From the NCBI RefSeq assembly GCF_029227855.1, contig NZ_CP074356.1: a stretch of DNA of 64,000 nt; one strand, given 5' to 3'. A model generated the notes under the pieces. It saw nothing but the letters and a program-made list of their open reading frames with translations. It ran no database searches and was not told the origin of the DNA. Position numbers and translations under genes: made by a program. The stretch is from Escherichia coli. Its GTDB lineage: Bacteria > Pseudomonadota > Gammaproteobacteria > Enterobacterales > Enterobacteriaceae. Shown here one piece after another: positions 10,144 to 42,813 of this stretch (its first letter is position 1; the number at the start of each line of letters is the position of its first letter).

Positions 10144-11263
10144 CTCCCCGCAAGGACTGACGCCAGATAGTTTCTGTCCATGGCTGCTTTTCGCATCTTA
10201 CGTCTTAACCCTGCCTTGAATACCTTATCATTCGTCAAAATATTAATAGCGATGTGCCGTATCCCTGAAAATAATTCTGCTGCATTTCCTCTTCTTATTT
10301 TGCAGTCGTCTTCATTCATTACCACGTCCAGACGCCAGTGCAGCTTATTCTCCACGTGCCAGTGGTTTCGGATTGCTGTGGCGAACTTCTCTGCGGTTAA
10401 ATCAGCAGAACTAATATAATATCTGACCGCCATTTCTGGCTCTTTCTTTTGTTCTGCTATTATTGACCGAAAGGAGACTGCCACGCATAATTTCTTCAGA
10501 CCTTTCCATTCAAACGTGAAATCAATAAGTTCATCAGGGACATCGCAAACAATGTGAAGACGGATTTCTTCTCTGCCGTGACTCTTTTCACTCATTGCGT
10601 AACTGTCATGCTCTGGATTATTTAATTCTTTCAGCGGAAATTCTCGAAGGCTTTATTTAGCCGCCCCTGGTTTCCTTTTACAGCGAATAAATAATCACCT
10701 CCCTGTTTTTGTATCTTCTCTGCAATATCTTTCTGGCAACCCATCGCATCAGTTGTGATGATTTTTCCTTTAATATCCAGCATGTTAAGAAGTTCTGGGA
10801 TAGCTGTAATTTCATTGGATTTCTCATCCGTCCTGATCTGTCCGATGACCAGACTGTGCATTGTTGAGAACGCACTAATGACATGAATCGCTCCCTTGCG
10901 GCGACTCTTGTCATAAGAATGCCGGAGTGTTTTTCCATCAATTGCGATGACGTCTTTATCATCTGAAGTATGGCAATCTCGCATCCAGTTAATAAAGCAC
11001 TCGTGAAATTTTGCAGGACTGATACAGGATACAACTCTGGCGATGGTATCGTGAACAGGAATACCATTTTAAAAATCACCGTATTGTTTTAAAAAATCGA
11101 GATGTGTTTCCCCAAAATCCTCTATATCTTCCCAACCTTCCGCACCCGAAATAACAGCACAAATAGTCAACAGTAGAATATCCGATAATTTATGTTCCAC
11201 TTTCCAGGCTTGTCTGTAATCGGGGATAATAGAAATATGCCCCATCAATTTTTTAAGTTCTAT
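10131..11263 (-). pseudogene. ISAs1-family (H-repeat associated) transposase, decayed
   Basis: Three collinear pieces of an H-rpt protein: start codon is ATA not ATG (11261..11263), in-frame TAA after ..KQYGDF, and a roughly 4-nt deletion frameshift between 10595 and 10631. Confidence 0.8.
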
Positions 11264-11483: not shown

Positions 11484-11861
11484 TCACTCCTGACCAAAAT
11501 CTTTCCACACTAATGCATGAGACTTTGATTTATCACCCAAAAATTTACTTACATCTTTCCAAAGTAAAGAATTGCTATCGGTCGCAGTGACTATTGCCTC
11601 TATAAGCCCTGTAGCTACAACTGTGGCCAATTCATCATCAATCGAGACCATACCATCTTCGACATGTTTAAATATTTTTTCTCTTTCAATATCACCCATT
11701 TCATAAAAATTTTTTACAATCGTTTTTCCAATCTGAGAGAACAACATAACCACCGGTGGAGTTTCTGGATGCCAGTATTCATTAGCTAATGAGACTGTCT
11801 CAGACAAAACAGTGGAAAACGATGCCATTTTTTCTATATAATTAGCAATATATTGGTTCAT
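11484..11861 (-). CDS. putative immunity protein for the Rhs C-terminal toxin
   Basis: 125-aa acidic ORF whose ATG overlaps the Rhs stop (TAATG); AT-rich; no TM helix or signal peptide. Confidence 0.6.
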   Translation of the reverse strand: MNQYIANYIEKMASFSTVLSETVSLANEYWHPETPPVVMLFSQIGKTIVKNFYEMGDIEREKIFKHVEDGMVSIDDELATVVATGLIEAIVTATDSNSLLWKDVSKFLGDKSKSHALVWKDFGQE

Positions 11862-14800
11862 TACTTGCCTCCCAAAGCATTCTGTAAATCCTGAAGAACG
11901 TTTTCTGCTGCTGCTCGATCCCCTGGAGATGCTGTTGGATTCTTATCCAACCAATCCTGTAAAGCCCTTGTATAATCCTGTGCTTTCAATACATGTCCTC
12001 TACCACCAACTTTTTCACCTGTGGCCAATTCATAACGAACAGCATCTGCTGTGCTTCCACTTCCTACTTTTGCATTTGGCCGATAAAGATCGTCTATAAT
12101 ATTTTTCAAATTTGAATCTGTAACGTCAGGTTTTCCCATCTTCTGTCGCAATTCATCTTTATACCGTTCATGCTGCATACGATCTCTTGCGCTATTCTCA
12201 TCTTCTGGTCCCCATCCTCCCGGGCTTCCCGTACTGCCACCACCCAGGCAGTTCTTCTCTTCCTCCGTCAAATCCTTCCCGACATTTGGATTCTCTTTTG
12301 ATGAATCATCATTTCCAAACACGCTGGAAAAAGCACCATAGGGATCTCGCCAGAATTCCATTTGACTTTGTGCATTTAATAATTCGGCTTCACCCTGCAT
12401 CTCCATACTTTTCTCAATCGCGTCCCCAACAGCCTCGCGATTGTTGTATATTATTATACCACCACCAATAACCACCGTACCGACTGCCGCACCGACTAAC
12501 ATCCCCGGAGGGCCTCCTACCGAACCGATCTCTGTACCTACTTCAGAACCAGTTCCCATGGCAGTTAATGCTCCTGCGCCCAACGCCGCACTTAATCCCA
12601 GCGGATCCAGCCGTTGCACCGGGTTCAGTGGATACGCATACAGGTTCCATCCCCCCTTCAGCCCAATCGGATCCTGGGTGATATACCTCCCCTGTAGCGG
12701 GTCATAGTACCGGTGACGGTTGTAGTACAGCCCCGACTCCTCATCATACTGCTGCCCCGGCAGACGGAGTGACTGTTGAAGGTGCTGCGTGCTTTCCTCT
12801 CCCAGCAGGTTTCCCCACTCGTCATACTCCCCGCGCCACGCCGTTTCCCCTTCCGGGCTGATAAGCGCCTGCGGCAGCCCACGGTGGTCACAGTGGTAAA
12901 GATGAAGTTTCCTCTCCGGGATGTATTCCGCCTCCAGTTGCGCCGCCATCTGTTCCGCCGTCAACCCACACTGTGCAAGCCACTGCTGGCTTTCTTCACT
13001 CACGCTGCCCTGCCGCAGTTCCCGCTCCAGCCTCCCCAGCATCACCGCCAGCTCCGCCGGTAGCGTCACACCCGTGTCCTCCTGCAACACCTCCGCCAGG
13101 CTACGGTGCCGCGCCTTCGCCTGTTCGCCATTCTCTGTTTCGATTCTCAGGAGCGGCGTGAAGCTCCCCGGCTGGTATACCGTCTGGATACGCGTGGTGT
13201 CGGTCTGTACCGTCGTCAGCCTGTCGCCGTCCCACCCGTACCAGGTCACCTCCGGTTTACGCGACAGCGACATCCACCCCGTCAGGTCACGCTCCCGCCG
13301 CCACACCCGTTTTCCCGTCCGGCGGCCCAGCGGGTCATAGAGGTAGCGGCTCTCCACCTGTGGCTCGCCGTGCTGTATCCGCGTGTAGAACACCAGGCGG
13401 TGCTGGCTGTCGTAATGGTAGTGGTGCGTCCGCTCGTCGTGCATCCGTATCACCCCTTCCGGGATACGGTCCGTCTTCTCCGCCAGCCTGCCGTATTCAT
13501 CGTAGCGGTAGACATAGTGCGCATCTTCCGTGATGCGGTTATCCGGCCACGCCGTGAGGGTGCTGTCCGGGTGCAGTTCCGGGTCCGGCAGCCGGTTTCC
13601 TGCCGGGTCCGTCGCATACGGGATATCAATGTCCAGGTTCGCTGCCGTGGTGTGGACGCCCGTCAGCCTTCCCGTGTCGCTGTAACGGTACTCCCGGCTC
13701 TCCTGCGGGCCGCTGATGCGAATTAGCTGTCCGTTGTCGTTCCAGTCGTAGTCACGGTCAAGCTGCGGAAGGTTCAGGTGCCTGCTCCGGAGCTGGCCGC
13801 TGGTATTCCAGGCGGTGGCAAGCTCATATGCCTCCCCGCCGAAGCTGCGGGCCGTCTCACGGTGCAGCCGGTCCCGCGTGTACTCGACCAGTGGCGTACC
13901 ACCCAGCTTCATTCCCGCAAGATAACCGCTGCCATACGTCAGCCACTCCACCGGCGGCAGACCGTCCAGCTCCTGACGGGTCGCCAGCCCCTGTTCGCTG
14001 TACGCGTGCTTCGTCTCATGCTCCCACAGCATCTCCCCCGTCTCCGGGTTCTCCACCGTCTGCCGTTCGCCCGTCAGGCGGCCTTTATCGTCGTGGCCGT
14101 AGTGGACCGCCACACGGTGGCCTTCGCTGATATGGCTGATTTCTGTCAGCCAGCCGTGCTCATCATACTGCCACTGCTCCGCCGGGTCGCCGTTCACCGT
14201 CCGGTGCGTGATGCGGTCCGACGCATCGTAATGCCAGAGGGTGATAAGTCCCTCGTCTTCACTGTGGACAAGCTGCCCTGTGGCGCTGTACCGGTAACGC
14301 TGCGTCCTGCCGTCAAAGCCGCGCTGCTCCGTCAGCCTGTCCACCGGGTCATACCGGAACGTGGACTGGCTGCCGTTCTCGTTGGTCAGCACGGTGATGC
14401 GCCCGGCAGCGTCATACCCCATGCTGCGCGTCAGACCGCCTTCCGTCACACTCACCGGACGCCCGCGTTTATCATATTCGATGGTGCTGCGTTTACCGTC
14501 CGGTGATATCGTTGCTGTCAGGTCGCCTGCGGCGCTGTACTCATAACGGGTTTCACGCCCCTGCGCATCCTTCTGACTGACCAGTTGGCCTCGCGGGTTA
14601 TAACTGCTGTAAGTGCTGATGCCTTCCTCCCGGTGAACGGCGATTTGTTGACCGTACCGGTCATACTCATACCGCGTCATGTACCCCGAGCAGTCCGTGA
14701 AGGCCCGAAGCTGACCGTACCGGTTTCGCGTTATTCTCCGCGTCACCCCGATTCCGTCTTCCACCGCGCCGGGCAGGCTACTGCGGGGGGAGTCATAAAA

Positions 14801-16360
14801 CCAGCGCGTAATGTTACCGTTGCGCGAGATCTCTTCTGCCAGTCGGCCCTGACGGTCATATTTCCGGCTGCTGCGTAAACCATCCGGATATGTCACTGAA
14901 GTCAGTTGCAACTGGCTGTTGTAACCATACCGTACCGTCCTGCCGTCCGGCAGTATCACTGAAGTCAGCTTTCCAGACGCCATATGCAGCCGGTACTCCG
15001 TCCGCCGTCCTGCCGCATCCGTCTGCGCCTTCAGCCTCCCCGCCTCATCATACTCGCTGCGGGTGATGCTCCCGTCGGCATGCTCCTTCTTCACCACACG
15101 CTTCAGGCCACCCCCGCCTTCCGTGTACAGCACCTCCCGCCGGTTCAGGCTGTCCGTGATGGTCACACGGTCCTGCCCGTACTCAAAGCGGTAGTCCAGC
15201 CCCTCCGGGTTGACCTGCTCCGTCACCCGCCCGGTATCATCATACCGGTAGCGGCTCTCCGGCCTCCCTGCATAATGGTGCGCCACCATCCGCCCGGCGT
15301 GCTCCGCATCATAAGTAAACCCGCGCACCTGCGTCCCGCTGCGGTCATACACCGCCCGCAGTTCTCCGCTGGCCGTGTACGTATAGCGCGCCAGCGGCGC
15401 AGTCGGCTGTTCATCCGGGTATGCCGGGTCGTGTGTCAGCCACACCGCCTCCAGCCGGATACCGTTATCGGCACCGTATTCTGTACCGGCGGGCAGCGTA
15501 TCGGGGAAAACCTGAGAAGAGGAAACAGAACGGGGACCGGCTGGAGAAGATAAAGAAGAGGCGCGCTGTTTACGGAAGGCTTCCGCCCGCTGCGCCTGCG
15601 TGCTCAGCGCCAGGTGAAAACAGCGGCCCGCGCCGTCCGTCACCCCCGTCACCGCACCCGCCACGTCACCCTCTGCCGCCCGGTGGAAGGCCAGCGTCCG
15701 CCCGAAGCCGTCCACCACGCCCGTCAGCACCCGGTATGCGGGCGGCTCCGGCGGCAGCACCTCGTCCGCCCCCGGCACCCGCTCCGGCCAGCCGAGCACC
15801 AGCCACTGCCCGGTTGTGCTGGCAGCCATCATATAGATGTGTGGACTCAGACGGACCGCTTCCGGCAACGCCCGCCAGAGCCGCGCAAGCGGGTGGCCTT
15901 TGTGCTGTTTCAGCACCCCGCACCGCGCCAGCCAGAACGACTCGCTGCGGCTGTAGCTTATCTCGCCGGGAAACAGGGGTTCAAAGTGAATGCTCCTGCC
16001 GCCGCTGTCGTTGAGTATCAGGCCTTCATCGCGTATCTGTAAGCGGATATCGAAGGGGGCTTTCCAGCCGGGACCAAACACCCCCACCGGCGCGGGCGTC
16101 CTGGTCCGGTAGCTGCTGTAGGCGCGGAAAAGAACAAACGGCAGCGGGCCGGACAGTGCCAGGTCGGTTTCAGCAGGCAGCACCTTCGCTCCCAGCAGCG
16201 GGTTTACCGGATTGCCATATTTCGGCGTGGCTTCCCCTGTGGGACACACCGAGCAGGCCACACCGGTTGGCGCACCTATCAGCACCCCTGCTGAACCCTG
16301 CACAATATCCAGTCCCTTGCGGGTCATGTCACCCTGCCGCGCCGCCGGTTTTCCACCCAT
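11861..16360 (-). CDS. PAAR domain-containing Rhs family polymorphic toxin (T6SS effector)
   Basis: 1499 aa: N-terminal PAAR-like region, long YD/RHS repeat core, hallmark [10 protein letters not shown] (DPLGL at 12593..12607), then a 243-aa C-terminal domain (11864..12592). Confidence 0.9.
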
Positions 16361-16435: not shown

Positions 16436-18577
16436 TCAAAATTGCCGCATATCCGGCATTCCGGGGGGTAAATCTTTCGGCACAGGCGCATCCGGTACAG
16501 GTTGTGTGGCACCACAGTTCCAGTTAATCACCGGCGCATCACCGTTCACATCCGACTCTCCTTCCAGATGAATGTGCGTACCATTGAGAAATATGCTTCC
16601 GTCCTTCGTCAGCACCAACCTTGCCTTACCGCAGCAGAGTTCCAGATGCTCACCGGCAGAATAAACTGCTGTTTGTCCGGTGTTTTCCTTCATCGTCTTG
16701 CCCACCGAGAAGGTGACGTTATTCCCTACATTGACGCTGTAGCCCATTCCCACCATCAGTGATTTATGCAGCCCTACCTGTGAGGACTGCAACAACGCCA
16801 CCGAGGTATTCATGATGCCGCCTACCGTCGTCTGGTAAGCCACGCCCACCGTCAGCGCACGAATGATCCCCACCTTTTCAACCTGGTTTGAACCCACTTT
16901 GACAATCTGGTTGCTGCCTACCGTTTCCACCTGGTTGACACCAACCGTCTGTATCTGATTAACGCCAATGTTCTGGATCTGGTTATTGGTAACGGTGATC
17001 GCCTGGTTGTTACCTATTTTTTCGGCATGGTTGTTTATCACATCAGTGGTACGGTTATTCAGCACCTCGGTGTTCATGTTCTTCTGCGCGTGGATGTAGA
17101 CCTGTTCTTTCCCTGTCGCATCGTCAAACTTCAGTTCATTAAACCCGCTGCCCTTATAGGTTTTTGAACGAATGGTCATCTGCGTCTTTGTTCCCGGCAG
17201 GCTGCCGGGGGTGCGGTTTTCCTGGTGGTAGGTGCGCCCCATAATAATCGGCTGGTCCGGATCGCCGTTGAGGAAGTCCACAATGACTTCCTGACCCACA
17301 CGCGGTATCGCCAGGTTGCCAAAGCCGGTGCCTGCCCACGCCTGTGCCACACGGATCCAGCATGAACTGTCCTGGTTTGACGGGTTATAGCGGTCCCAGT
17401 TAAATTTCACCCGCACGCGGCCATGTTCATCACAGAAGATTTCTTCTCCTGCCGGTCCCGTCACGACGGCGCTCTGCGGGCCGTCCACCAGCGGTTTCAG
17501 CAACGGCTGTGGCCGCCATGTTCTGTCTGCCGGTATTACCGCAAAGTGGTTATTCAGCGTGGTACCTGAACCCCTGCGTCCCGGCACCGCCTGCGGCTGC
17601 TCGCCGTGCAGTTCACTTGCCACCACCTGCCATTCCCGGTTCAGGTTCGCCTGCGGATGCCCCGTCAGCGCAATTCGCCGTCCCGGCCATATCTCCGGCG
17701 AACGGCTTGTTCCGCGCGCCACTTCTGCGTTGTTTCGCCAGCCATCCATCTGCCAGCAGGCAAAGTTCTGCCCGTGGGCACCCTTGAAACGTCCGGGGTA
17801 GTCATACACTTCATACTGTGTGCGCTGGTAATCCTGGTGCTGGCCTTCCTGATCAAAACGCCCTGCCCAGCCGGGTCGTTTAAAGGTGTAGTCTTTGGTC
17901 ACCACGGAAGATGGGCGGATTTGTGCGCTGTAGAGGAACTGGCTGATGCATAGGGTGCTCACCTCGGTACGGGTGTTCGGATTCCAGGGGATCTCAAAGG
18001 ACTCCGGCAGATAACGCACGGTGTCGCACAGGACCAGGCTCTGGTCGGTACTTTTTTGCGCGTGCTCCTCATAAAAGAAGATGCCTTCCTCCGCCGCCAT
18101 CCGGCACAGGAAATCGTAATCGGTTTCGCCGTACTGGACACAAAACTCACGGGAAGGATGCGGCTCGCTGAACAGCGGACTCCACTCGGTCACCCCGTTT
18201 TCTTTCAGGATCGTCGCGAGTATGCTTTCGATGTCCTCATTCTGGAAGATACGGAAGTTCTGGCGCAGCCCTGTGCGCCACAGCGGTGGGCACACCTTCA
18301 TGCTGTACAGCATCTGGTTTTTGTCGTTCTCCCCCAGTTCAAACCAGGTCACCACACCTTTCACCCGGCGCTGTACGTCATCGCCCTGCCATACCGTCAG
18401 GTAGGCCATTTTGTCCAGCACCTGCGCAAATTCAAGGGAGAGAAACTGCTGGCTGACCAGAGAGAGATCGAGGGAAAAGAGCGAAGAGAGTGACTGGTTC
18501 AGATGAAAGGAGACCACCGCAAACGCGTCCGGTGGCAGGCCGTCCACTTCCAGCGTGAAACGTAATCCGGTTGACAT
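16436..18577 (-). CDS. vgrG: T6SS spike protein VgrG (TssI)
   Basis: 713 aa; typical VgrG N-terminus MSTGLRFTLEVDGLP, gp27/gp5-like regions with repeated VGxNQ motifs, C-terminal extension. Confidence 0.9.
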   Translation of the reverse strand: MSTGLRFTLEVDGLPPDAFAVVSFHLNQSLSSLFSLDLSLVSQQFLSLEFAQVLDKMAYLTVWQGDDVQRRVKGVVTWFELGENDKNQMLYSMKVCPPLWRTGLRQNFRIFQNEDIESILATILKENGVTEWSPLFSEPHPSREFCVQYGETDYDFLCRMAAEEGIFFYEEHAQKSTDQSLVLCDTVRYLPESFEIPWNPNTRTEVSTLCISQFLYSAQIRPSSVVTKDYTFKRPGWAGRFDQEGQHQDYQRTQYEVYDYPGRFKGAHGQNFACWQMDGWRNNAEVARGTSRSPEIWPGRRIALTGHPQANLNREWQVVASELHGEQPQAVPGRRGSGTTLNNHFAVIPADRTWRPQPLLKPLVDGPQSAVVTGPAGEEIFCDEHGRVRVKFNWDRYNPSNQDSSCWIRVAQAWAGTGFGNLAIPRVGQEVIVDFLNGDPDQPIIMGRTYHQENRTPGSLPGTKTQMTIRSKTYKGSGFNELKFDDATGKEQVYIHAQKNMNTEVLNNRTTDVINNHAEKIGNNQAITVTNNQIQNIGVNQIQTVGVNQVETVGSNQIVKVGSNQVEKVGIIRALTVGVAYQTTVGGIMNTSVALLQSSQVGLHKSLMVGMGYSVNVGNNVTFSVGKTMKENTGQTAVYSAGEHLELCCGKARLVLTKDGSIFLNGTHIHLEGESDVNGDAPVINWNCGATQPVPDAPVPKDLPPGMPDMRQF

Positions 18578-18786: not shown

Positions 18787-19305
18787 TTATGCTTCCAGCG
18801 GTGCGCGCCAGTCGTCGGCACCGGAGGTGCCAGACTTGACGTGTTCCCACTCTATTTTGCGGTAGGCCAGTGAAACTTCGAGCAACTGGGTGAACTCGCG
18901 TTTCGCCGGATCCTGGCAATGCGGCATATGCAGTTTCATATCGACAATCGTCGAATCGGTCAGGCGGGTGGTGAAATAATGCTCCTGTTTGCCTTCCACA
19001 GAGGTACGCCACCAGTGAAGTTCAGTGGTTGGCAGCATTTCGCCGGAGGCCAGTGCGTTGTACATCAGCGGAACAGCTTTGTTCAGCGCCACGGTAAAAA
19101 TGAACGGCTTGTGAGCACGCTGACCCGCAGGCTGGCCGGACTGAGGATCGGTCGGGACAGTAACGTTATGCAGGAATTCCTGCACCAGCATCTCGTCTTC
19201 GTGCCCCTGCACATAGATGTTGCCGACAGAATCAGCGGTAAATGCACCTGCAGTAATATTTCCCTGGGTCTGACCAGTGATGGAGATATAACACGGTGTT
19301 GGCAT
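18787..19305 (-). CDS. hcp: T6SS tube protein Hcp (TssD)
   Basis: 172 aa MPTPCYISITGQTQG...; close match to V. cholerae-type Hcp as I recall it. Confidence 0.95.
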   Translation of the reverse strand: MPTPCYISITGQTQGNITAGAFTADSVGNIYVQGHEDEMLVQEFLHNVTVPTDPQSGQPAGQRAHKPFIFTVALNKAVPLMYNALASGEMLPTTELHWWRTSVEGKQEHYFTTRLTDSTIVDMKLHMPHCQDPAKREFTQLLEVSLAYRKIEWEHVKSGTSGADDWRAPLEA

Positions 19306-29542: not shown

Positions 29543-32338
29543 ATGATCCAGATTGATCTTCCCACGCTGGTAAAACGGCTGAACCTGTTCTCCCGCCAGG
29601 CGCTGGAGATGGCCGCCTCTGAATGTATGAGTCAGCAGGCAGCGGAAATTACCGTCAGCCATGTGCTTATTCAGATGCTCGCCATGCCACGCAGCGACCT
29701 GCGGGTTATTACCCGCCAGGGCGATATTGGCATGGAAGAGTTGCGCCAGGCGCTGACGGTGGAGAACTACACAACTGCCCGTTCTGCGGACAGCTACCCG
29801 GCATTTTCCCCGATGCTGGTTGAGTGGCTGAAAGAGGGCTGGCTGCTGGCGTCGGCTGAGATGCAGCACAGCGAATTGCGTGGCGGCGTGTTGCTGCTGG
29901 CCCTGCTGCATTCGCCGCTGCGTTATATACCGCCTGCTGCCGCCCGGTTGTTGACCGGCATTAACCGTGACCGTCTGCAACAGGACTTTGTACAGTGGAC
30001 ACAGGAGTCGGCGGAATCAGTCGTGCCGGATGCAGACGGTAAAGTCGCAGGCACACTGACGGACGCTGCTGACACCCTGCTTGCCCGCTACGCCAAAAAC
30101 ATGACCGCAGACGCCCGTAACGGCAGGCTTGACCCGGTACTGTGCCGCGACCACGAAATCGACCTGATGATCGACATTCTCTGCCGCCGCCGCAAGAACA
30201 ACCCGGTGGTGGTGGGCGAAGCAGGCGTGGGTAAAAGTGCCTTAATCGAAGGGCTGGCGCTGCGCATCGTGGCAGGCCAGGTGCCGGACAAACTGAAAAA
30301 CACCGATATCATGACCCTTGACCTAGGCGCATTGCAGGCCGGGGCGTCGGTGAAGGGCGAATTCGAAAAACGCTTCAAGGGGCTGATGGCGGAGGTCATT
30401 TCCTCTCCGGTGCCGGTCATTCTGTTTATTGACGAAGCACATACCCTGATTGGCGCGGGCAACCAGCAGGGCGGGCTGGATATCTCCAACCTGCTCAAAC
30501 CGGCGCTGGCGCGCGGCGAACTGAAAACCATCGCCGCCACCACCTGGAGCGAATACAAAAAATACTTCGAGAAAGATGCCGCCCTGTCGCGCCGCTTCCA
30601 GCTGGTGAAGGTCAGCGAACCCAACGCCGCCGAAGCCACCATTATTCTGCGTGGTCTGTCGGCGGTCTATGAACAGTCTCACGGCGTGCTGATTGATGAT
30701 GACGCCTTGCAGGCCGCAGCAACGCTGAGCGAACGTTATCTCTCCGGGCGTCAGTTGCCGGACAAAGCCATTGATGTGCTGGATACCGCCTGCGCCCGCG
30801 TCGCCATTAACCTTTCCTCGCCGCCGAAGCAAATCTCGGCGCTGACCACTCTGAGCCACCAGCAGGAGGCGGAAATTCGCCAGCTTGAGCGCGAGCTTCG
30901 CATCGGGCTGCGTACCAACACCTCACGGATGACCGAGGTGCTGGTGCAGTACGATGAAACGCTGACGGCGCTGGATGAACTGGAAGCGGCCTGGCATCAG
31001 CAGCAGGCGCTGGTCCGGGAGATTATCGCGCTGCGCCAGCAGTTGCTGGGCGTGGCAGAAGACGATGCGGCGTCGTTGCCGGACGCAGATGCCGCGGAGG
31101 ATACGCCGCCAGAGTCAGAGTCAGAGTCAGAGTCAGAGTCAGAGTCAGAGTCAGAACAGGATAATACCGGTGCCGTACCGGCTGATGAGGCCGACAGAGA
31201 ACAGCCGGAAGAGACCGCTGAAACAGTTTCCCCGGTACAGCGGCTGGCCCAGCTCACTGCCGAACTGGACGCCCTGCATAACGACCGGTTGCTGGTCTCC
31301 CCGCACGTCGATAAAAAACAGATTGCGGCGGTGATTGCCGAATGGACCGGCGTGCCGCTCAACCGCCTGTCGCAGAATGAAATGTCGGTCATCACCGACC
31401 TGCCGAAATTGCTGGGCGACACCATCAAAGGCCAAGACCTGGCGATTGCCAGCCTGCATAAGCATCTACTGACCGCACGCGCCGACCTGCGTCTTCCGGG
31501 ACGCCCGCTCGGTGCGTTCCTGCTGGCTGGCCCCAGCGGTGTGGGTAAAACCGAAACCGTCCTGCAACTGGCAGAGCTGCTCTACGGCGGTCGCCAGTAC
31601 CTGACCACCATCAATATGTCCGAATTCCAGGAGAAACACACCGTCTCGCGGCTGATTGGTTCGCCTCCGGGCTACGTTGGCTACGGTGAAGGCGGCGTAC
31701 TGACCGAAGCGATTCGCCAGAAACCCTACTCGGTAGTACTGCTCGATGAAGTGGAAAAAGCGCACCCGGATGTGCTCAACCTGTTCTACCAGTCGTTCGA
31801 TAAGGGCGAAATGGCAGACGGTGAAGGCCGCCTGATTGACTGCAAAAATATCGTCTTCTTCCTGACGTCCAACCTCGGCTACCAGGTAATAGTCGAGCAC
31901 GCCGATGACCCGGAAACCATGCAGGAAGAACTGTATCCGGTGCTGGCCGACTTCTTCAAACCTGCCCTGCTGGCGCGTATGGAAGTGGTGCCGTATCTGC
32001 CGCTGTCGAAAGAGACGCTCGCCACCATTATCGCCGGAAAACTGGCCCGTCTGGATAACGTGCTGCGCAGTCGCTTTGGTGCAGAAGTGGTCATTGAACC
32101 GGAAGTGACGGACGAAATCATGAGCCGCGTCACCCGCGCGGAAAACGGCGCGAGGATGCTGGAATCGGTCATCGATGGCGACATGCTACCGCCGCTCTCG
32201 CTGCTGCTGTTGCAGAAAATGGCGGCTAACACGGCGATTGCCCGGATTCGGTTGTCGGCGGTGGACGACGCATTTACGGCAGACGTGGAAGATGCTCAGA
32301 ACGACGAGTCCGTCACAAAGGATGAAACGGTTTTATGA
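29543..32338 (+). CDS. clpV: T6SS AAA+ ATPase ClpV (TssH)
   Basis: 931 aa from ATG 29543 (RBS AAGGA); two Walker A motifs (GEAGVGKS, GPSGVGKT); track ORF has an upstream extension. Confidence 0.95.
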   Translation: MIQIDLPTLVKRLNLFSRQALEMAASECMSQQAAEITVSHVLIQMLAMPRSDLRVITRQGDIGMEELRQALTVENYTTARSADSYPAFSPMLVEWLKEGWLLASAEMQHSELRGGVLLLALLHSPLRYIPPAAARLLTGINRDRLQQDFVQWTQESAESVVPDADGKVAGTLTDAADTLLARYAKNMTADARNGRLDPVLCRDHEIDLMIDILCRRRKNNPVVVGEAGVGKSALIEGLALRIVAGQVPDKLKNTDIMTLDLGALQAGASVKGEFEKRFKGLMAEVISSPVPVILFIDEAHTLIGAGNQQGGLDISNLLKPALARGELKTIAATTWSEYKKYFEKDAALSRRFQLVKVSEPNAAEATIILRGLSAVYEQSHGVLIDDDALQAAATLSERYLSGRQLPDKAIDVLDTACARVAINLSSPPKQISALTTLSHQQEAEIRQLERELRIGLRTNTSRMTEVLVQYDETLTALDELEAAWHQQQALVREIIALRQQLLGVAEDDAASLPDADAAEDTPPESESESESESESESEQDNTGAVPADEADREQPEETAETVSPVQRLAQLTAELDALHNDRLLVSPHVDKKQIAAVIAEWTGVPLNRLSQNEMSVITDLPKLLGDTIKGQDLAIASLHKHLLTARADLRLPGRPLGAFLLAGPSGVGKTETVLQLAELLYGGRQYLTTINMSEFQEKHTVSRLIGSPPGYVGYGEGGVLTEAIRQKPYSVVLLDEVEKAHPDVLNLFYQSFDKGEMADGEGRLIDCKNIVFFLTSNLGYQVIVEHADDPETMQEELYPVLADFFKPALLARMEVVPYLPLSKETLATIIAGKLARLDNVLRSRFGAEVVIEPEVTDEIMSRVTRAENGARMLESVIDGDMLPPLSLLLLQKMAANTAIARIRLSAVDDAFTADVEDAQNDESVTKDETVL
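31111..31155 (+). repeat. (GAGTCA)7 in-frame hexanucleotide tandem repeat inside clpV
   Basis: AGAGTC x7, encoding (Ser-Glu)7 in an acidic linker between the two AAA+ modules. Confidence 0.9.
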
Positions 32339-38048: not shown

Positions 38049-39401
38049 ATGAATAGTAACGGACTGACACAAACTATCGTTACCGGCAGTGACCCGCGCG
38101 GGCTGCCGGAATTCAGCGCCATCCGCGAGGAAATAAACAAAGCCAGCCATCCGTCACAGCCTGAGCTGAACTGGAAACTGGTGGAGTCGCTGGCGCTGGC
38201 GATTTTTAAAGCCAACGGTGTGGATTTACACACCGCCACCTACTATACGCTTGCCCGGACACGGACACAGGGACTGGCGGGATTCTGCGAAGGTGCGGAA
38301 CTGCTGGCGGCAATGGTAAGCCACGACTGGGATAAATTCTGGCCGCAGGGCGGTCCGGCGCGTACTGAAATGCTGGACTGGTTTAACTCCCGAACCGGCA
38401 ATATTCTGCGTCAGCAAATCCCCTTTGCGGAACCCGATCTGCCACTGATCTACCGCACAGAGCGGGCATTGCAGCTTATCTGCGACAAGCTTCAGCAGGT
38501 GGAGCTGAAGCGCGTTCCGCGCGTGGAGAATCTGCTCTATTTTATGCAGAACACGCGTAAGCGGCTTGAACCCCAGCCGAAGAGTAACGTTGAAAACGCC
38601 GTACAGACCACGGTTAGAACACTGATTTATGCCCCGGAAACAACGGCTTCCTCCACGCCAGAAGCGGTAGTGCCTCCCCTGCCCGACCTGCCTGAGATGA
38701 AAGTAGAAGTGCGCAGTCTGTCAGAGAATCCCCCACAGGCCAGTGTGATGAAGCAAGGCAGTACGGTAAGAGGGTTTATCACGGGGATCGCCTGTTCAGT
38801 GGCTGTCGCCTCAGCATTGTGGTGGTGGCAGGTCTATCCGGTGCAACAGCAACTGTTACAGGTTAACGACACCGCGCAGGGCGCAGCAACGGTGTGGATG
38901 GCCTCACCTGAACTAGAAAACTATGAGCGCAGGCTGCAACAGCTTCTTGGCGTCTCCCCGGTACAACCGCTGGAAACCGGGATGCAGATGATGCGTGTTG
39001 CCGACAGTCGCTGGCCGGAAAGCCTGCAGCAGCAGCAGGCCTCGACACATTGGAATGAAGCACTCAAAACCCGCGCACAGAGTAGCCCGCAGTTGCGTGG
39101 CTGGTTGCAGACCCGTCAGGACTTACATGCTTTTGCAGATCTCGTGATGCGGCGCGAGAAAGAGGGACTAACCCTTTCCTATATCAAAAATGTCATCTGG
39201 CAGGCGGAGCGGGGACTGGGGCAGGAAACACCCGTTGAGTCTCTGTTGACGCAGTACCAGGATACCCGTGCGCAGAAGCAGAATATAGATGCGCTGGAAA
39301 AACAAATTAATGAGCGACTCGAAGGCGTGTTAATCCGCTGGCTGCTGCTGAAGAATAACGTCATGCCAGAGGCGGCAACCGGGACCACGGCCGAAAAATA
39401 A
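38049..39401 (+). CDS. TssA-like ImpA-N-domain membrane protein (TagA/VasL family)
   Basis: 450 aa from ATG 38049 (RBS GAGG); ImpA-like N-terminus and a mid-protein TM helix (ITGIACSVAVASALWWW). Confidence 0.75.
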   Translation: MNSNGLTQTIVTGSDPRGLPEFSAIREEINKASHPSQPELNWKLVESLALAIFKANGVDLHTATYYTLARTRTQGLAGFCEGAELLAAMVSHDWDKFWPQGGPARTEMLDWFNSRTGNILRQQIPFAEPDLPLIYRTERALQLICDKLQQVELKRVPRVENLLYFMQNTRKRLEPQPKSNVENAVQTTVRTLIYAPETTASSTPEAVVPPLPDLPEMKVEVRSLSENPPQASVMKQGSTVRGFITGIACSVAVASALWWWQVYPVQQQLLQVNDTAQGAATVWMASPELENYERRLQQLLGVSPVQPLETGMQMMRVADSRWPESLQQQQASTHWNEALKTRAQSSPQLRGWLQTRQDLHAFADLVMRREKEGLTLSYIKNVIWQAERGLGQETPVESLLTQYQDTRAQKQNIDALEKQINERLEGVLIRWLLLKNNVMPEAATGTTAEK

Positions 39402-39424
39402 TTATTTAATTAAAGGAGATTATC

Positions 39425-39907
39425 ATGGCAAATATGAGTTATTTATCTTTGAGTGGAGAGACACAAGGGCTGATTTCAGCAGGTTGCTCAACGCTTGATT
39501 CTGTCGGAAACAAAGCACAGCCAGAACATAAAGATCAGATCATGGTTTATGCGTTAATGCATTCCATCTCAAGAAGTCAAAATGTCAATCATCATGAATT
39601 AATTATCACCAAACCGGTTGATAAATCCTCACCATTGCTGGCAAAAGCACTTAGTGACAATGAAAAAATGGTAACATGTGAATTTATACTCTACCGAACC
39701 AGTAAAGCGGGTATTTACCAGCCTTATTATAAAATAAACCTGTCAAAAGCCCGAATATCAAGTATTGATTTTGTCACACCGCATGCTGTCCTGGAAAAAG
39801 AACTGGAGCCACAGGAGAGAATTGCCTTTATTTATGAAGATATTTCCTGGGAGCATACGTTAGCCGGTACGAATGCAATGAGTAAATGGCAGGATCGTGT
39901 ACAGTAA
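39425..39907 (+). CDS. Hcp family protein, second divergent copy
   Basis: 160 aa MANMSYLSLSGETQGLISAG...; Hcp-like fold signature; AAGGAG RBS. Confidence 0.85.
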   Translation: MANMSYLSLSGETQGLISAGCSTLDSVGNKAQPEHKDQIMVYALMHSISRSQNVNHHELIITKPVDKSSPLLAKALSDNEKMVTCEFILYRTSKAGIYQPYYKINLSKARISSIDFVTPHAVLEKELEPQERIAFIYEDISWEHTLAGTNAMSKWQDRVQ

Positions 39908-39950
39908 TTTACTGTAATAACATAATAAATTACTATTGCGGAGAGATATA

Positions 39951-40865
39951 ATGGCTGGTTTAAGGAATAATAACAACACACAGAATGCACAGTGGGCTGA
40001 TTATGTGGGTGACATTCTTCGGGGGGCTCAACCGATAAACCAGCTAGTACCTCAGCACCCTTATCTTAACGACGTCCCACTCATTGATGAATTAAGGCGT
40101 CAGAACACTCATCATGTTATTCTCTTGACACTTGATGTTGCAAAAAAAATACTCAACTCAATAACATCATTTGATTACATTCATTTTATCACTACACATC
40201 CTTCAGGTATAAAAGATACACTCGCTTGGTTAGTTAACGCGGGTAAATTAATGACTGAGTTTGATGGAAATGGGAAAATTATATTTAACTTTAATACCTT
40301 AAAGTATACAAAAGCAAGTTACTTTGAAATACTTGGAGAGAAATATATAAAAATTACAACATCCAGCCCCTGGCTTTTAGAAAAGCTCGGTAAATATATT
40401 TTCTCTTCACGAGCGCCTCAAGTTCTGGAACTCGCTATTGGCTGGCGAGGAGCTTTATCTGAATCAATAAAAGGAGTTAAGTTCTGTATCTGGTTTTCAG
40501 TAGCCTGGAGAACCATAGAATTTATTATGAGTTCAGAGCGAGATCTGGTTAATTTTCTTGGTGATTTTTCAATGGATGTGGCCAAAGCAGTGATTGCAGG
40601 CGGTGTTGCAACTGCTATTGGAAGCCTGGCTTCTTTTGCCTGTCTTAGTTTTGGCCTTCCAGTAATTCTTGTAGGAGGAGCAATTTTACTTACAGGGATA
40701 GTGTGTACAGTTGTTTTAAATGAAATCGATGCTCAATACCATTTATCAGAAAAATTAAAAGATGCAATTAGAGATGGACTAAAACGGCAACAGGAACTTG
40801 ATAAATGGAAAAGGGAAAACATGACTCCATTTATGTATGTTCTTAACACTCCTCCCGTGATATGA
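39951..40865 (+). CDS. hypothetical protein with C-terminal glycine-zipper transmembrane region (candidate T6SS cargo)
   Basis: 304 aa from ATG 39951 (RBS GGAGAG); AT-rich; C-terminal AGGVATAIGSLASF...LPVILVGGAILLTGIV hydrophobic segments. Confidence 0.6.
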   Translation: MAGLRNNNNTQNAQWADYVGDILRGAQPINQLVPQHPYLNDVPLIDELRRQNTHHVILLTLDVAKKILNSITSFDYIHFITTHPSGIKDTLAWLVNAGKLMTEFDGNGKIIFNFNTLKYTKASYFEILGEKYIKITTSSPWLLEKLGKYIFSSRAPQVLELAIGWRGALSESIKGVKFCIWFSVAWRTIEFIMSSERDLVNFLGDFSMDVAKAVIAGGVATAIGSLASFACLSFGLPVILVGGAILLTGIVCTVVLNEIDAQYHLSEKLKDAIRDGLKRQQELDKWKRENMTPFMYVLNTPPVI

Positions 40866-40874
40866 GGATTAACT

Positions 40875-41129
40875 ATGCGTTTACATGTTAAATTGAAAGA
40901 GTTTTTTTCGATGTTTTTTATAGCCATATTATTTTTCCCTGCATTCAATGCTTCTTTATTTTTTACCGGAATTAAACCTCTATATTCAATAATAAAAGGC
41001 TCCACGGAAATATTTTATGATTGGAGAATGTTGATTCTATGCTTCGGTTTCATATCGTTTTCCTTGTTAAATATTCATGTAATTTTACTAACAATAATAA
41101 AATCATTCTTAATAAAAAAACAAAGGTAA
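40875..41129 (+). CDS. small hydrophobic protein, possibly the 5' part of a frameshifted membrane-protein gene
   Basis: 84-aa ORF with two predicted TM helices; ends just after an A7 run (41113..41119); ORF 41021..41341 continues in another frame. Confidence 0.4.
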   Translation: MRLHVKLKEFFSMFFIAILFFPAFNASLFFTGIKPLYSIIKGSTEIFYDWRMLILCFGFISFSLLNIHVILLTIIKSFLIKKQR

Positions 41130-41489
41130 TCAATTTCGCCACAGACATAACAATACAGCTAACTCTTATATTTTTACTAATAGCTATCGTAATAGCACCT
41201 TTAATAGCTCCTTTTGTCACAGGATATGTCAATGCTAATTATCACCCCTGCGGTAATAACACGGGGATTTTCCCAGGAGCAATCTATATTAAAAATGGCA
41301 TAAAATGTAATAATGAACATATTTCTCGCAAGGAAGATTAAGCAGTTAAATAATTAAATATTCTAAAACAAACAGTTTTTAACGCCGGATTCCATGTCCT
41401 TTCTTGCACTGTCTTTGTCAGGAACAATTTCTTATGCAAAGAATTTTGTATTATTGCCGCCAGAAATTCCTGGCGGCAGATATAATTTA

Positions 41490-42275
41490 TTATTGATAGC
41501 GGTTAACCAAATCTTTTACCATCGCTTTATAGGTCTTTTGCTTAAGTTGTATGATTTGCTGCTCTGTCATATCAGTCGTACTGGCTTCATTCTTGCCGGG
41601 AAATGGTGGAAGCACTTTATATTCATAATTCACCGGCGACCAGGCAGCCCACTCACCTGTAGCTACATCCACCAGCGTGAATCGCACCAGATAGCGCAGT
41701 GAGATTGTGTTAGTCAGTTTTTCATTTTTATAATCGGACCATACTGTTGATTTCAGTGCAGTGTCATATTTTCCTGTCTGCAACGTATCCTGGTAAACAA
41801 TAATCGCTTTCTGATGGCCTTTTGCCGCCACAAAACGTAATGCCTGCATCCAGTTCATATTTTCAGCACTGGCAACATCCTCGTTCTCATTTTTATCTTT
41901 GTTTTTGTTACAAGTCAGAGGCTTTTGTCTGTCCGGGATACCAGAGAATGTGGAAACAGTATAATATTTTCGCATCTCCTCCTGCATAATGGTTTCCGGT
42001 GCGCGGTTGCCGGATTGAACAAGTATTACAGGTGAATTAAGGGGAACGCGGAACTCATCTCCATCAAGCGCAGCTTGAATATCCTCCTCGGATACGGCTA
42101 GTGTGGTTTCATTACCAAATAAGTCTTTGTCTGTTAGTTGCTGCGGAGCGTTTTTATTAAAATTACTTTGTGTGGTTTGAGCTTTTTTCTTCTTTTCATC
42201 AATAAGAGATTCAGAGACACATCCTGCAAGCAGCGACAATAATACATATATACAACAAACCTTTTTTGAATTCAA
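41490..42275 (-). CDS. yafT: lipoprotein YafT
   Basis: 261 aa with lipobox LLAGC; AT-rich; matches the yafT position next to aspV. Confidence 0.85.
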
Positions 42276-42542
42276 AATCGGACACTCCCTCGTCTGTCAT
42301 AATCATGGTAATGTTTAGCTAACGATTTTTAATTATATACTCCACTTGAATCAGAACAAACAAAAATAATATTAAATATTAATTCATTAAATCAATAGAA
42401 TAATAAAAATTATAACATGGAAATATATTTAAATTGAATGATTCGCTGGTATTATTAAATATTAATGAATGGTCAATCATATATAATTACCACATTTACA
42501 GCATAACAAAATAATTGAACGAAGAAATTGTGGGGTTTAAAT

Positions 42543-42576
42543 ACAAAAAAAACCGCAAAATTAAAAATTTTGCGGT
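42543..42576 (-). terminator. rho-independent terminator downstream of aspV
   Basis: AACCGCAAAA / TTTTGCGGTT stem followed by a T8 run on the minus strand. Confidence 0.6.
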
Positions 42577-42604
42577 TCTCTGAACTCATTTTCATGAGTG
42601 AATT

Positions 42605-42681
42605 TGGCGGAACGGACGGGACTCGAACCCGCGACCCCCTGCGTGACAGGCAGGTATTCTAACCGACTGAACTACCGCTCC
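42605..42681 (-). tRNA. aspV: tRNA-Asp (GTC)
   Basis: Reverse complement reads GGAGCGGTAGTTCAGTCGGTTAGAATACCTGCCTGTCACGCAGG...CCGCCA. Confidence 0.97.
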
Positions 42682-42813
42682 GCGTTGTGTTCCGTTGGGA
42701 ACGAGGCGAATATTACGGATTGCCTCACCCTTCGTCAACGGTTTTTCTCATCTTTTGAATCGTTTGCTGCAAAAATCGCCCAAGTCGCTATTTTTAGCGC
42801 CTTTTACAGGTAT

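Follow-up and report, generated by a model that had tools for sequence, protein, structure and literature searches.

A predicted Tme-family effector module with a frameshifted immunity gene at the end of an Escherichia coli type VI secretion island

The window analysed here, a stretch of 64,000 nucleotides from Escherichia coli (RefSeq assembly GCF_029227855.1, contig NZ_CP074356.1), carries a complete-looking, aspV-linked type VI secretion system (T6SS) island. At the right-hand end of this island four open reading frames (ORFs) lie 3' of a TagA-like gene: hcp2, an ORF of 304 amino acids (aa), and two small ORFs, ORF-A and ORF-B. We identify the 304-aa protein as a predicted T6SS effector of the Tme family, a system already catalogued in 2020, and the two small ORFs as the halves of one gene, ykfM. 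We put a probability of about 85% on the reading that hcp2, tme and the tmi gene ykfM form a three-gene auxiliary effector module whose immunity gene is broken in this strain. The toxicity of Tme, the immunity conferred by YkfM, the dependence on Hcp and the membrane topology are predictions within that reading. A first-pass annotation of the same DNA had suggested an Hcp protein together with a toxin that acts on membranes and a small immunity protein of the inner membrane. That interpretation is supported, and the published Tme listing gives the same arrangement, with an Hcp upstream and YkfM downstream.

The Tme family is defined by a C-terminal domain with a near-invariant DxxK motif, a predicted transmembrane (TM) helix and a flanking D (Fridman et al. 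2020, Nat Commun 11:1085, PMC7046647). The position-specific scoring matrix of those authors was built from residues 161-310 of Tme1, and their Supplementary Data 5 lists E. coli orthologues as Tme effectors with the domain at residues 122-277 and E-values of 1e-35 to 4e-36 (PMC7046647). One of these, WP_000908052.1 of E. coli HS (NC_009800, 238344-239258; Tme domain 122-277, E=3.7e-36), is entered with an Hcp 43 bp upstream and with YkfM, WP_001236649.1, 9 bp downstream (PMC7046647). The HS genome annotation places the orthologue at the table's coordinates, and the window protein is approximately 96% identical to it. The gene, here called tme, runs on the plus strand from an ATG at 39951 to 40865, starting 43 bp downstream of hcp2; an upstream TTG at 39936 would make the protein 309 aa. 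As the first-pass annotation had stated, there is no signal peptide. That annotation began the feature at 39425, which is the start of hcp2.

A word-indexed search with the 304-aa protein returned a narrow set of relatives, from E. coli, Salmonella and Rahnella only. A profile made from ten relatives (alignment A1) was then run against 1.84 billion representative proteins and matched 702 representative clusters at E<=0.001, 347 of them at E<=1e-10. The core common to the matches spans about profile positions 120-280. An N-terminal PAAR domain is present in four of the 12 longest relatives and a DUF4280 domain in one; both are T6SS spike-tip domains. The protein itself occurs only beside T6SS genes. 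Its association with the T6SS is that of the Tme family, with an hcp gene 43 bp upstream in the cluster and PAAR- or DUF4280-fused relatives. A search of PDB sequences gave no significant match, the best being AhlB at E=0.89. An α pore-forming toxin of the ClyA/AhlB type was considered and set aside, there being no similarity to the solved members.

The DxxK motif is D209-V-A-K212 (40575-40586, plus strand; alignments A1 and A3). It is followed by a hydrophobic helical hairpin at residues 213-259 (40587-40730, plus strand), which reaches a Kyte-Doolittle maximum of 2.71, and then by the conserved D260, so that D209 and K212 on one side and D260 on the other bracket the hairpin. These three residues are invariant among the close relatives in A1 and at least 90% conserved in A3, an alignment of 81 sequences. 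The AlphaFold2 model has long helices at residues 199-234 and 238-263, with a block-mean predicted local distance difference test score of about 75-93. The first-pass annotation had described a TM tail with glycine zippers. The hydrophobic hairpin is there, but motifs of the form [GAS]xxx[GAS]xxx[GAS] are confined to its first helix (216-228), and their Gly residues are not conserved across the wider Tme family (A3).

ORF-A (84 aa; 40875-41129, plus strand) begins 9 bp after tme and is overlapped in another frame by ORF-B (41021-41341, plus strand; 106 aa from a TTG, 100 aa from an ATG at 41039). A run of seven A residues (A7) lies in the overlap at 41114-41120, shifted rightwards by one base from the 41113-41119 given by the first-pass annotation, and the frame of ORF-A reads it as A_AAA_AAA. 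It had been foreseen that one extra A would fuse the small ORFs into a protein with three TM segments. The 155-aa product made in this way is identical to the YkfM annotated in the closest complete genome, that of E. coli JNEC-KY178 (NZ_AP045174.1), where the Prokaryotic Genome Annotation Pipeline (PGAP) names a 155-aa "protein YkfM". Over 39425-42300 one extra A is the sole difference between that genome and the window. The two small ORFs are thus the same gene as K-12 ykfM, with 92% protein identity for the ykfM cluster representative. E. coli HS and K-12 have C+A7 at the tract and an intact YkfM of 159 aa. In the window's haplogroup a C-to-A change made A8, from which the window then lost one A. 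We therefore annotate 40875-41341 (plus strand) as ykfM, a predicted Tmi-type immunity gene that is a frameshifted pseudogene in the window.

The Tmi immunity proteins are mostly DUF1240-like with 3-6 TM helices, and DUF1240 is the central node of the group (Fridman et al. 2020). The ykfM gene lies directly behind tme, as the tmi genes do behind theirs. Hydropathy of the restored protein gives three TM-like segments, at 10-33, 51-81 and 85-121, which bears out the three-TM prediction, and the published Phobius topology of HS YkfM, i12-32o52-75i96-119o, likewise has three TM helices (PMC7046647). YkfM is 50% identical to the DUF1240 (PF06836) protein at the same position in Salmonella, 30-31% identical to two others and 21% identical to that of Rahnella, and PF06836 is matched by P0255, a relative with 69% identity to YkfM. 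The residues M1, F20, F30, I46, I99, Y123, C126, G131, Y138, K140 and C145 are invariant in the YkfM/DUF1240 alignment. Judged by these comparisons, YkfM is clearly homologous to the Tmi-type DUF1240 proteins despite the missing Pfam score. The frame in the window breaks after the second TM segment, leaving 84 aa with the first two segments in frame and the third, together with a Cys tail, out of frame. Six of the invariant residues (Y123, C126, G131, Y138, K140 and C145) are in the ORF-B half. The most conserved part of YkfM, the third TM segment and the two-Cys tail, which the published topology puts in the periplasm, is wholly within ORF-B, and the 84-aa product is for this reason unlikely to protect. 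[quoted passage not shown] Literature searches on ykfM, on yafU and on yafT in connection with the T6SS found no functional study.

Is the loss of one A peculiar to this window? Alleles of the tract were counted in 5,426 complete genomes by exact queries of 81-83 nt. On the window-type haplotype the in-frame A8 is present in 255 genomes and the frameshifted A7 in 44. On the HS/K-12-type haplotype the in-frame C+A7 is present in 2,452 genomes, with frameshifted A6 in 5 and A8 in 5. Both of the A7 genomes inspected (2/2) have ykfM labelled "frameshifted" by PGAP. The ORF-B product specific to A7 (P0262, 100 aa) is found on at least 1,000 contigs from several sources, and the 84-aa ORF-A product is present in NCBI, ENA, JGI and Logan assemblies. 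The other A7 loci inspected share three single-nucleotide polymorphisms that are missing from the window, 40156G, 40853C (or a deletion there) and 42237G, and the window's haplotype matches an A8 genome instead. It follows that the slip from A8 to A7 took place at least twice within the haplogroup, and frameshifting has occurred again in the HS type. The ykfM frameshift is therefore recurrent, on at least two haplotypes.

Additional lesions accompany some of these alleles. Contigs with the A7 ykfM (L004-L011) often have extra single-base deletions in tme at 40021, 40142, 40367, 40403 and 40853, of which that at 40142 is within the A8 run of tme itself, at 40142-40149. Some of these assemblies also have a truncated rnhA, hcp or yafT, and part of the damage may be assembly error rather than decay. 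In E. coli ETEC1701 (L015, NZ_CP122938.1, 1-825), which has the A7 ykfM, the T6SS is clearly disrupted, with a truncated tssH abutting a truncated VasL-domain gene. This junction implies that vasI, tssA and tssM have been deleted, with hcp2 and tme intact there. Two K-12-derived records, NZ_CP047127.1 (K-12) and NZ_CP045741.1 (DH5alpha), have a C+A6 frameshift in ykfM that other K-12 records lack, through either a true mutation of the laboratory strains or an error at the homopolymer.

The other member of the module, hcp2 (39425-39907, plus strand), follows tssM and the TagA-like gene and encodes an orphan Hcp/TssD paralogue of 160 aa (TIGR03344, E=1e-60; RefSeq "Hcp family effector"). Its product has 30.6% identity to the in-cluster Hcp and 74% identity to the Hcp encoded ahead of the Tme variants of Salmonella and of contig ERR027323_427. 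Residues 1-45 of Tme (39951-40085, plus strand) form a conserved module with the motif W.DY.GD.LRG..P.NQL.PQH.Y, which recurs in many Tme-family representatives and is a candidate loading determinant. Between the window and the ERR027323 variant (L020) these 45 residues are 78% identical, the remainder of Tme only 27-33% and the immunity proteins 31%. The first 60 residues of Vibrio Tme1 are both required and sufficient for its secretion, whereas its toxicity does not need them (Fridman et al. 2020). By analogy, the N-terminus of the window's Tme may be a loading determinant matched to the adjacent Hcp. It is probably a module other than RIX, which is an Arg-rich N-terminal motif of about 55 aa. 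By composition, residues 1-45 hold only two Arg, and RIX domains have been found only in Vibrionaceae and Moritellaceae, a range that does not include E. coli. When the N-terminal 68 residues were searched on their own, the only matches were truncated copies of this E. coli protein, which gives no evidence of the module on other types of toxin.

The mechanism we propose follows the Vibrio members of the family. Both Tme1 and Tme2 exert their toxicity from the periplasm; they depolarise cells and make them permeable without lysis, and only the cognate Tmi gives rescue (Fridman et al. 2020). In E. coli, loading of the effector on the tube or spike of the T6SS is probably the task of the Tme N-terminus (about residues 1-45, perhaps as far as about 120), and the Hcp paralogue encoded 43 bp upstream is its most likely partner. 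The C-terminal Tme domain (about 122-277) is predicted to have a short β-hairpin and four long helices, the middle two forming the hydrophobic hairpin. Fired into the periplasm of a neighbour, the effector would insert this hairpin in the inner membrane, dissipating the membrane potential and permeabilising the cell as Tme1 and Tme2 do. YkfM, as a three-TM inner-membrane protein with its conserved two-Cys tail predicted to face the periplasm, would block the cognate Tme in sister cells.

The module is like Tme1/Tmi1 of V. parahaemolyticus BB22OP and Tme2/Tmi2 of T9109 in having a C-terminal DxxK, TM segment and D without a signal peptide, and in being encoded next to T6SS genes with a multi-TM immunity gene immediately downstream. 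Unlike the Vibrio effectors, the E. coli member is known from sequence alone, its N-terminus is probably another conserved motif in place of RIX, and its gene is directly behind an orphan hcp. Unlike a typical Tmi, YkfM is below the Pfam DUF1240 threshold and is frameshifted in the window. A wider likeness, predicted here, is to Tse4, Ssp6, Ssp4, VasX and Tke5, which are cargo effectors that act on the inner membrane from the periplasmic side and have small integral-membrane immunity proteins. No sequence relationship to any of these five was detected. The glycine zipper is typical of Tse4 and Ssp6 and is not conserved in the Tme family. Ssp4 homologues likewise sometimes adjoin hcp. Membership of the Ssp4 family was considered and rejected, since the 13 helices and four-TM immunity protein described for Ssp4 differ from what is found here and no homology was seen.

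Several other explanations of the small ORFs were considered. Has the missing A simply been lost in sequencing or assembly, so that the organism has A8, an intact ykfM and a functional pair? The tract is a homopolymer, just one complete genome shares the window's flanking haplotype and it has A8, and no complete genome exactly matches the window over 40100-42300. Set against this, the comparison of the window with JNEC-KY178 over 50 kb gives 18 substitutions, one in-frame indel of 6 nt and the single A. As the A tract is the only frameshifting difference over that distance, the assembly is not riddled with homopolymer errors; the A8 run within tme is intact, and the same allele stands in the 44 complete genomes and, through its ORF-B product, on the many contigs counted above. 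We regard an error as unlikely. (The 6-nt indel is in clpV/tssH at 31109, where the window is the shorter, and is the sole other indel in the 50 kb.) Or, does the A7 allele still yield some full-length YkfM, through a -1 ribosomal slip or an A added by RNA polymerase? A_AAA_AAA is a classic -1 slippery heptamer in the correct frame, a -1 shift restores the wild-type ...IKKTKVI..., and low-level immunity would account for the intact toxin and T6SS in such strains. Yet there is no stimulatory RNA structure downstream of the tract (minimum free energy -5.2 kcal/mol, z = 0.04), no Shine-Dalgarno-like element was seen upstream of it, and the majority allele is in frame. Several A7 contigs are also frameshifted in tme, a pattern suggestive of decay and not of regulation, and we consider such leakiness improbable. 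It is more doubtful still that the poly-A run is a contingency site at which immunity is tuned down through the -1 slip and not lost, although approximately 15% of complete genomes in the window-type haplogroup have A7 with the toxin gene kept. If this were true it could affect kin discrimination, or self-intoxication where the T6SS is active. Finally, ORF-A and ORF-B might be two separate genes for small membrane proteins, both being open in the window and ORF-B being often predicted by gene callers, or the 304-aa protein might be a housekeeping membrane protein unrelated to the T6SS. The tract is in frame in approximately 2,700 complete genomes (2452 + 255 exact matches), PGAP labels the split form as frameshifted, and the conserved residues span both halves; the 304-aa protein has PAAR-fused relatives and no location away from T6SS genes. 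We give either idea almost no credence.

The route of delivery is less secure than the identity of the genes. It is possible, though on balance we doubt it, that Tme travels on the VgrG/PAAR spike and that hcp2 encodes a spare tube subunit. The PAAR or DUF4280 fusions of its relatives favour this, as does its size, since 34 kDa exceeds the typical cargo of the Hcp lumen. In favour of delivery through the adjacent Hcp, hcp and tme stay paired in E. coli, Salmonella, ERR027323 and Rahnella, and the N-terminal module is kept together with a conserved Hcp (74%) even where the toxin part has diverged to about 30%. The same size and the same fusions count against the three-gene module as we describe it, in which delivery by Hcp is deduced from gene order and adjacency. 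Further points weigh on that side. Pfam and NCBIfam scans assign the 304-aa protein to no family, with chance-level matches only (DUF6722, E=6.9; XopF2, E=0.13). The restored 155-aa YkfM has no Pfam match even at E<=10 and itself scores nothing against DUF1240 (PF06836). Literature searches found no experimental study of any E. coli member of the Tme family. In addition, this strain combines a broken immunity gene with a toxin gene that is intact and a T6SS that is apparently so, and an active T6SS firing a toxin without immunity should harm kin, which suggests a silent system, a weak toxin or residual immunity. Possible explanations are that the T6SS is rarely expressed, that decay of the module is beginning, or that some immunity persists. 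The decay of tme in other A7 contigs supports the second of these, and the slippery tract, from which a -1 slip restores the wild-type sequence, makes the third conceivable.

The predicted effector module recurs, with different contents, in the same slot of other bacteria. The order hcp, Tme variant, DUF1240 gene and then yafT is found in Salmonella and in ERR027323, and in Rahnella a Tme relative is followed by a DUF1240 gene with an Hcp gene adjoining. Salmonella enterica GCA_027232745.1 (L019, 4001-7010) has an intact Tme of 307 aa, 63% identical to that of the window, with its DUF1240 gene, followed by a second Tme that is degraded to fragments of 169 and 43 aa, with the conserved N-terminus kept, and by a second DUF1240 gene. 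These tandem cassettes resemble the orphan toxin/immunity arrays of Rhs and contact-dependent inhibition (CDI) loci. The Tme of contig ERR027323_427 is 38% identical to the window's and is also followed by a DUF1240 gene. The slot between hcp and yafT is thus polymorphic, its cassettes differing from one bacterium to another.

In K-12 the DNA matches the window to 10411, within the ISAs1 remnant (K-12 yafF), and resumes at 40509, inside tme, from which it follows that K-12 lost 10412-40508. Gone with this segment are all of the T6SS, hcp2 and codons 1-186 of tme. The first-pass annotation had suggested that yafU and ykfM of K-12 might be remnants or homologues of the genes discussed here, and both are. 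The K-12 annotation calls yafU a hypothetical protein truncated at the N-terminus; it corresponds to the final 118 codons of tme. In ykfM, K-12 has the intact form of the small-ORF gene. Unlike the window, K-12 would therefore keep only an orphan immunity gene, intact with C+A7 and 159 aa, after deletion of the T6SS, hcp2 and the 5' part of tme. Among the 5,426 complete E. coli genomes, 2565, about half, hold at least 80% of 39425-42300 and so the full module. The ykfM segment is present in approximately 3,000, and the difference from the approximately 2,565 with the module indicates that about 400 genomes resemble K-12 in having the immunity gene without the full module.

The island as a whole is bordered on the left by yafV and an ISAs1 remnant (approximately 8927-10595), the transposase remnant adjoining yafV being at 10131-10595 on the minus strand. 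On the right it is bordered by yafT and the tRNA-Asp gene aspV (41490-42681). Genes for the Rhs core protein, VgrG and the first Hcp are on the minus strand. The plus strand has tssB, C, E, F and G, tagH, tssJ, K and L, clpV, vasI, tssA, tssM and the TagA-like ImpA_N/VasL gene. All T6SS genes are annotated as intact in NZ_AP045174.1 and the window keeps the matching long ORFs, so the T6SS of this strain is apparently intact. The GC content is 0.30-0.41 over 39250-42750 and 0.55-0.60 in the T6SS core, and the earlier description of an AT-rich cargo region is accordingly correct. The lipoprotein gene yafT (41490-42275, minus strand), with orthologues in related loci matched by Pfam PF25851, borders the module in both E. 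coli and Salmonella (approximately 51% identity); in some RefSeq genomes it is labelled as an aminopeptidase. Between the convergent ykfM and yafT, at 41454-41479 and with no strand assigned, is a GC-rich terminator-like hairpin with a 10-bp stem, 7 pairs of which are GC. It is a consensus match only, one such site being found where 2.2 are expected by chance. A promoter scan was at chance level (12 sites found, 11.2 expected).

A second effector set, all on the minus strand, occupies the other arm of the island. Its Rhs core protein has 1499 aa and a C-terminal extension past the core (11484-16360); upstream of this gene are those for VgrG (16436-18577) and for the in-cluster Hcp of 172 aa (18787-19305). 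An ORF of 125 aa after the Rhs gene has no family match and could be the Rhs immunity gene.

The Tme family and the E. coli tme/ykfM pair were known before this work. What is added is modest: the link to yafU and ykfM of K-12, the relation of YkfM to DUF1240, the N-terminal module paired with a conserved Hcp, and the recurrent poly-A frameshift. An immunity gene that is broken repeatedly beside an intact toxin gene poses a small puzzle, namely how kin escape harm. Present in about half of the complete genomes, the Tme module is likely to be among the commonest antibacterial effectors of E. coli. The reading also offers a concrete function for two genes of K-12, in which ykfM would be an orphan T6SS immunity gene and yafU the toxin remnant of a 30-kb deletion.

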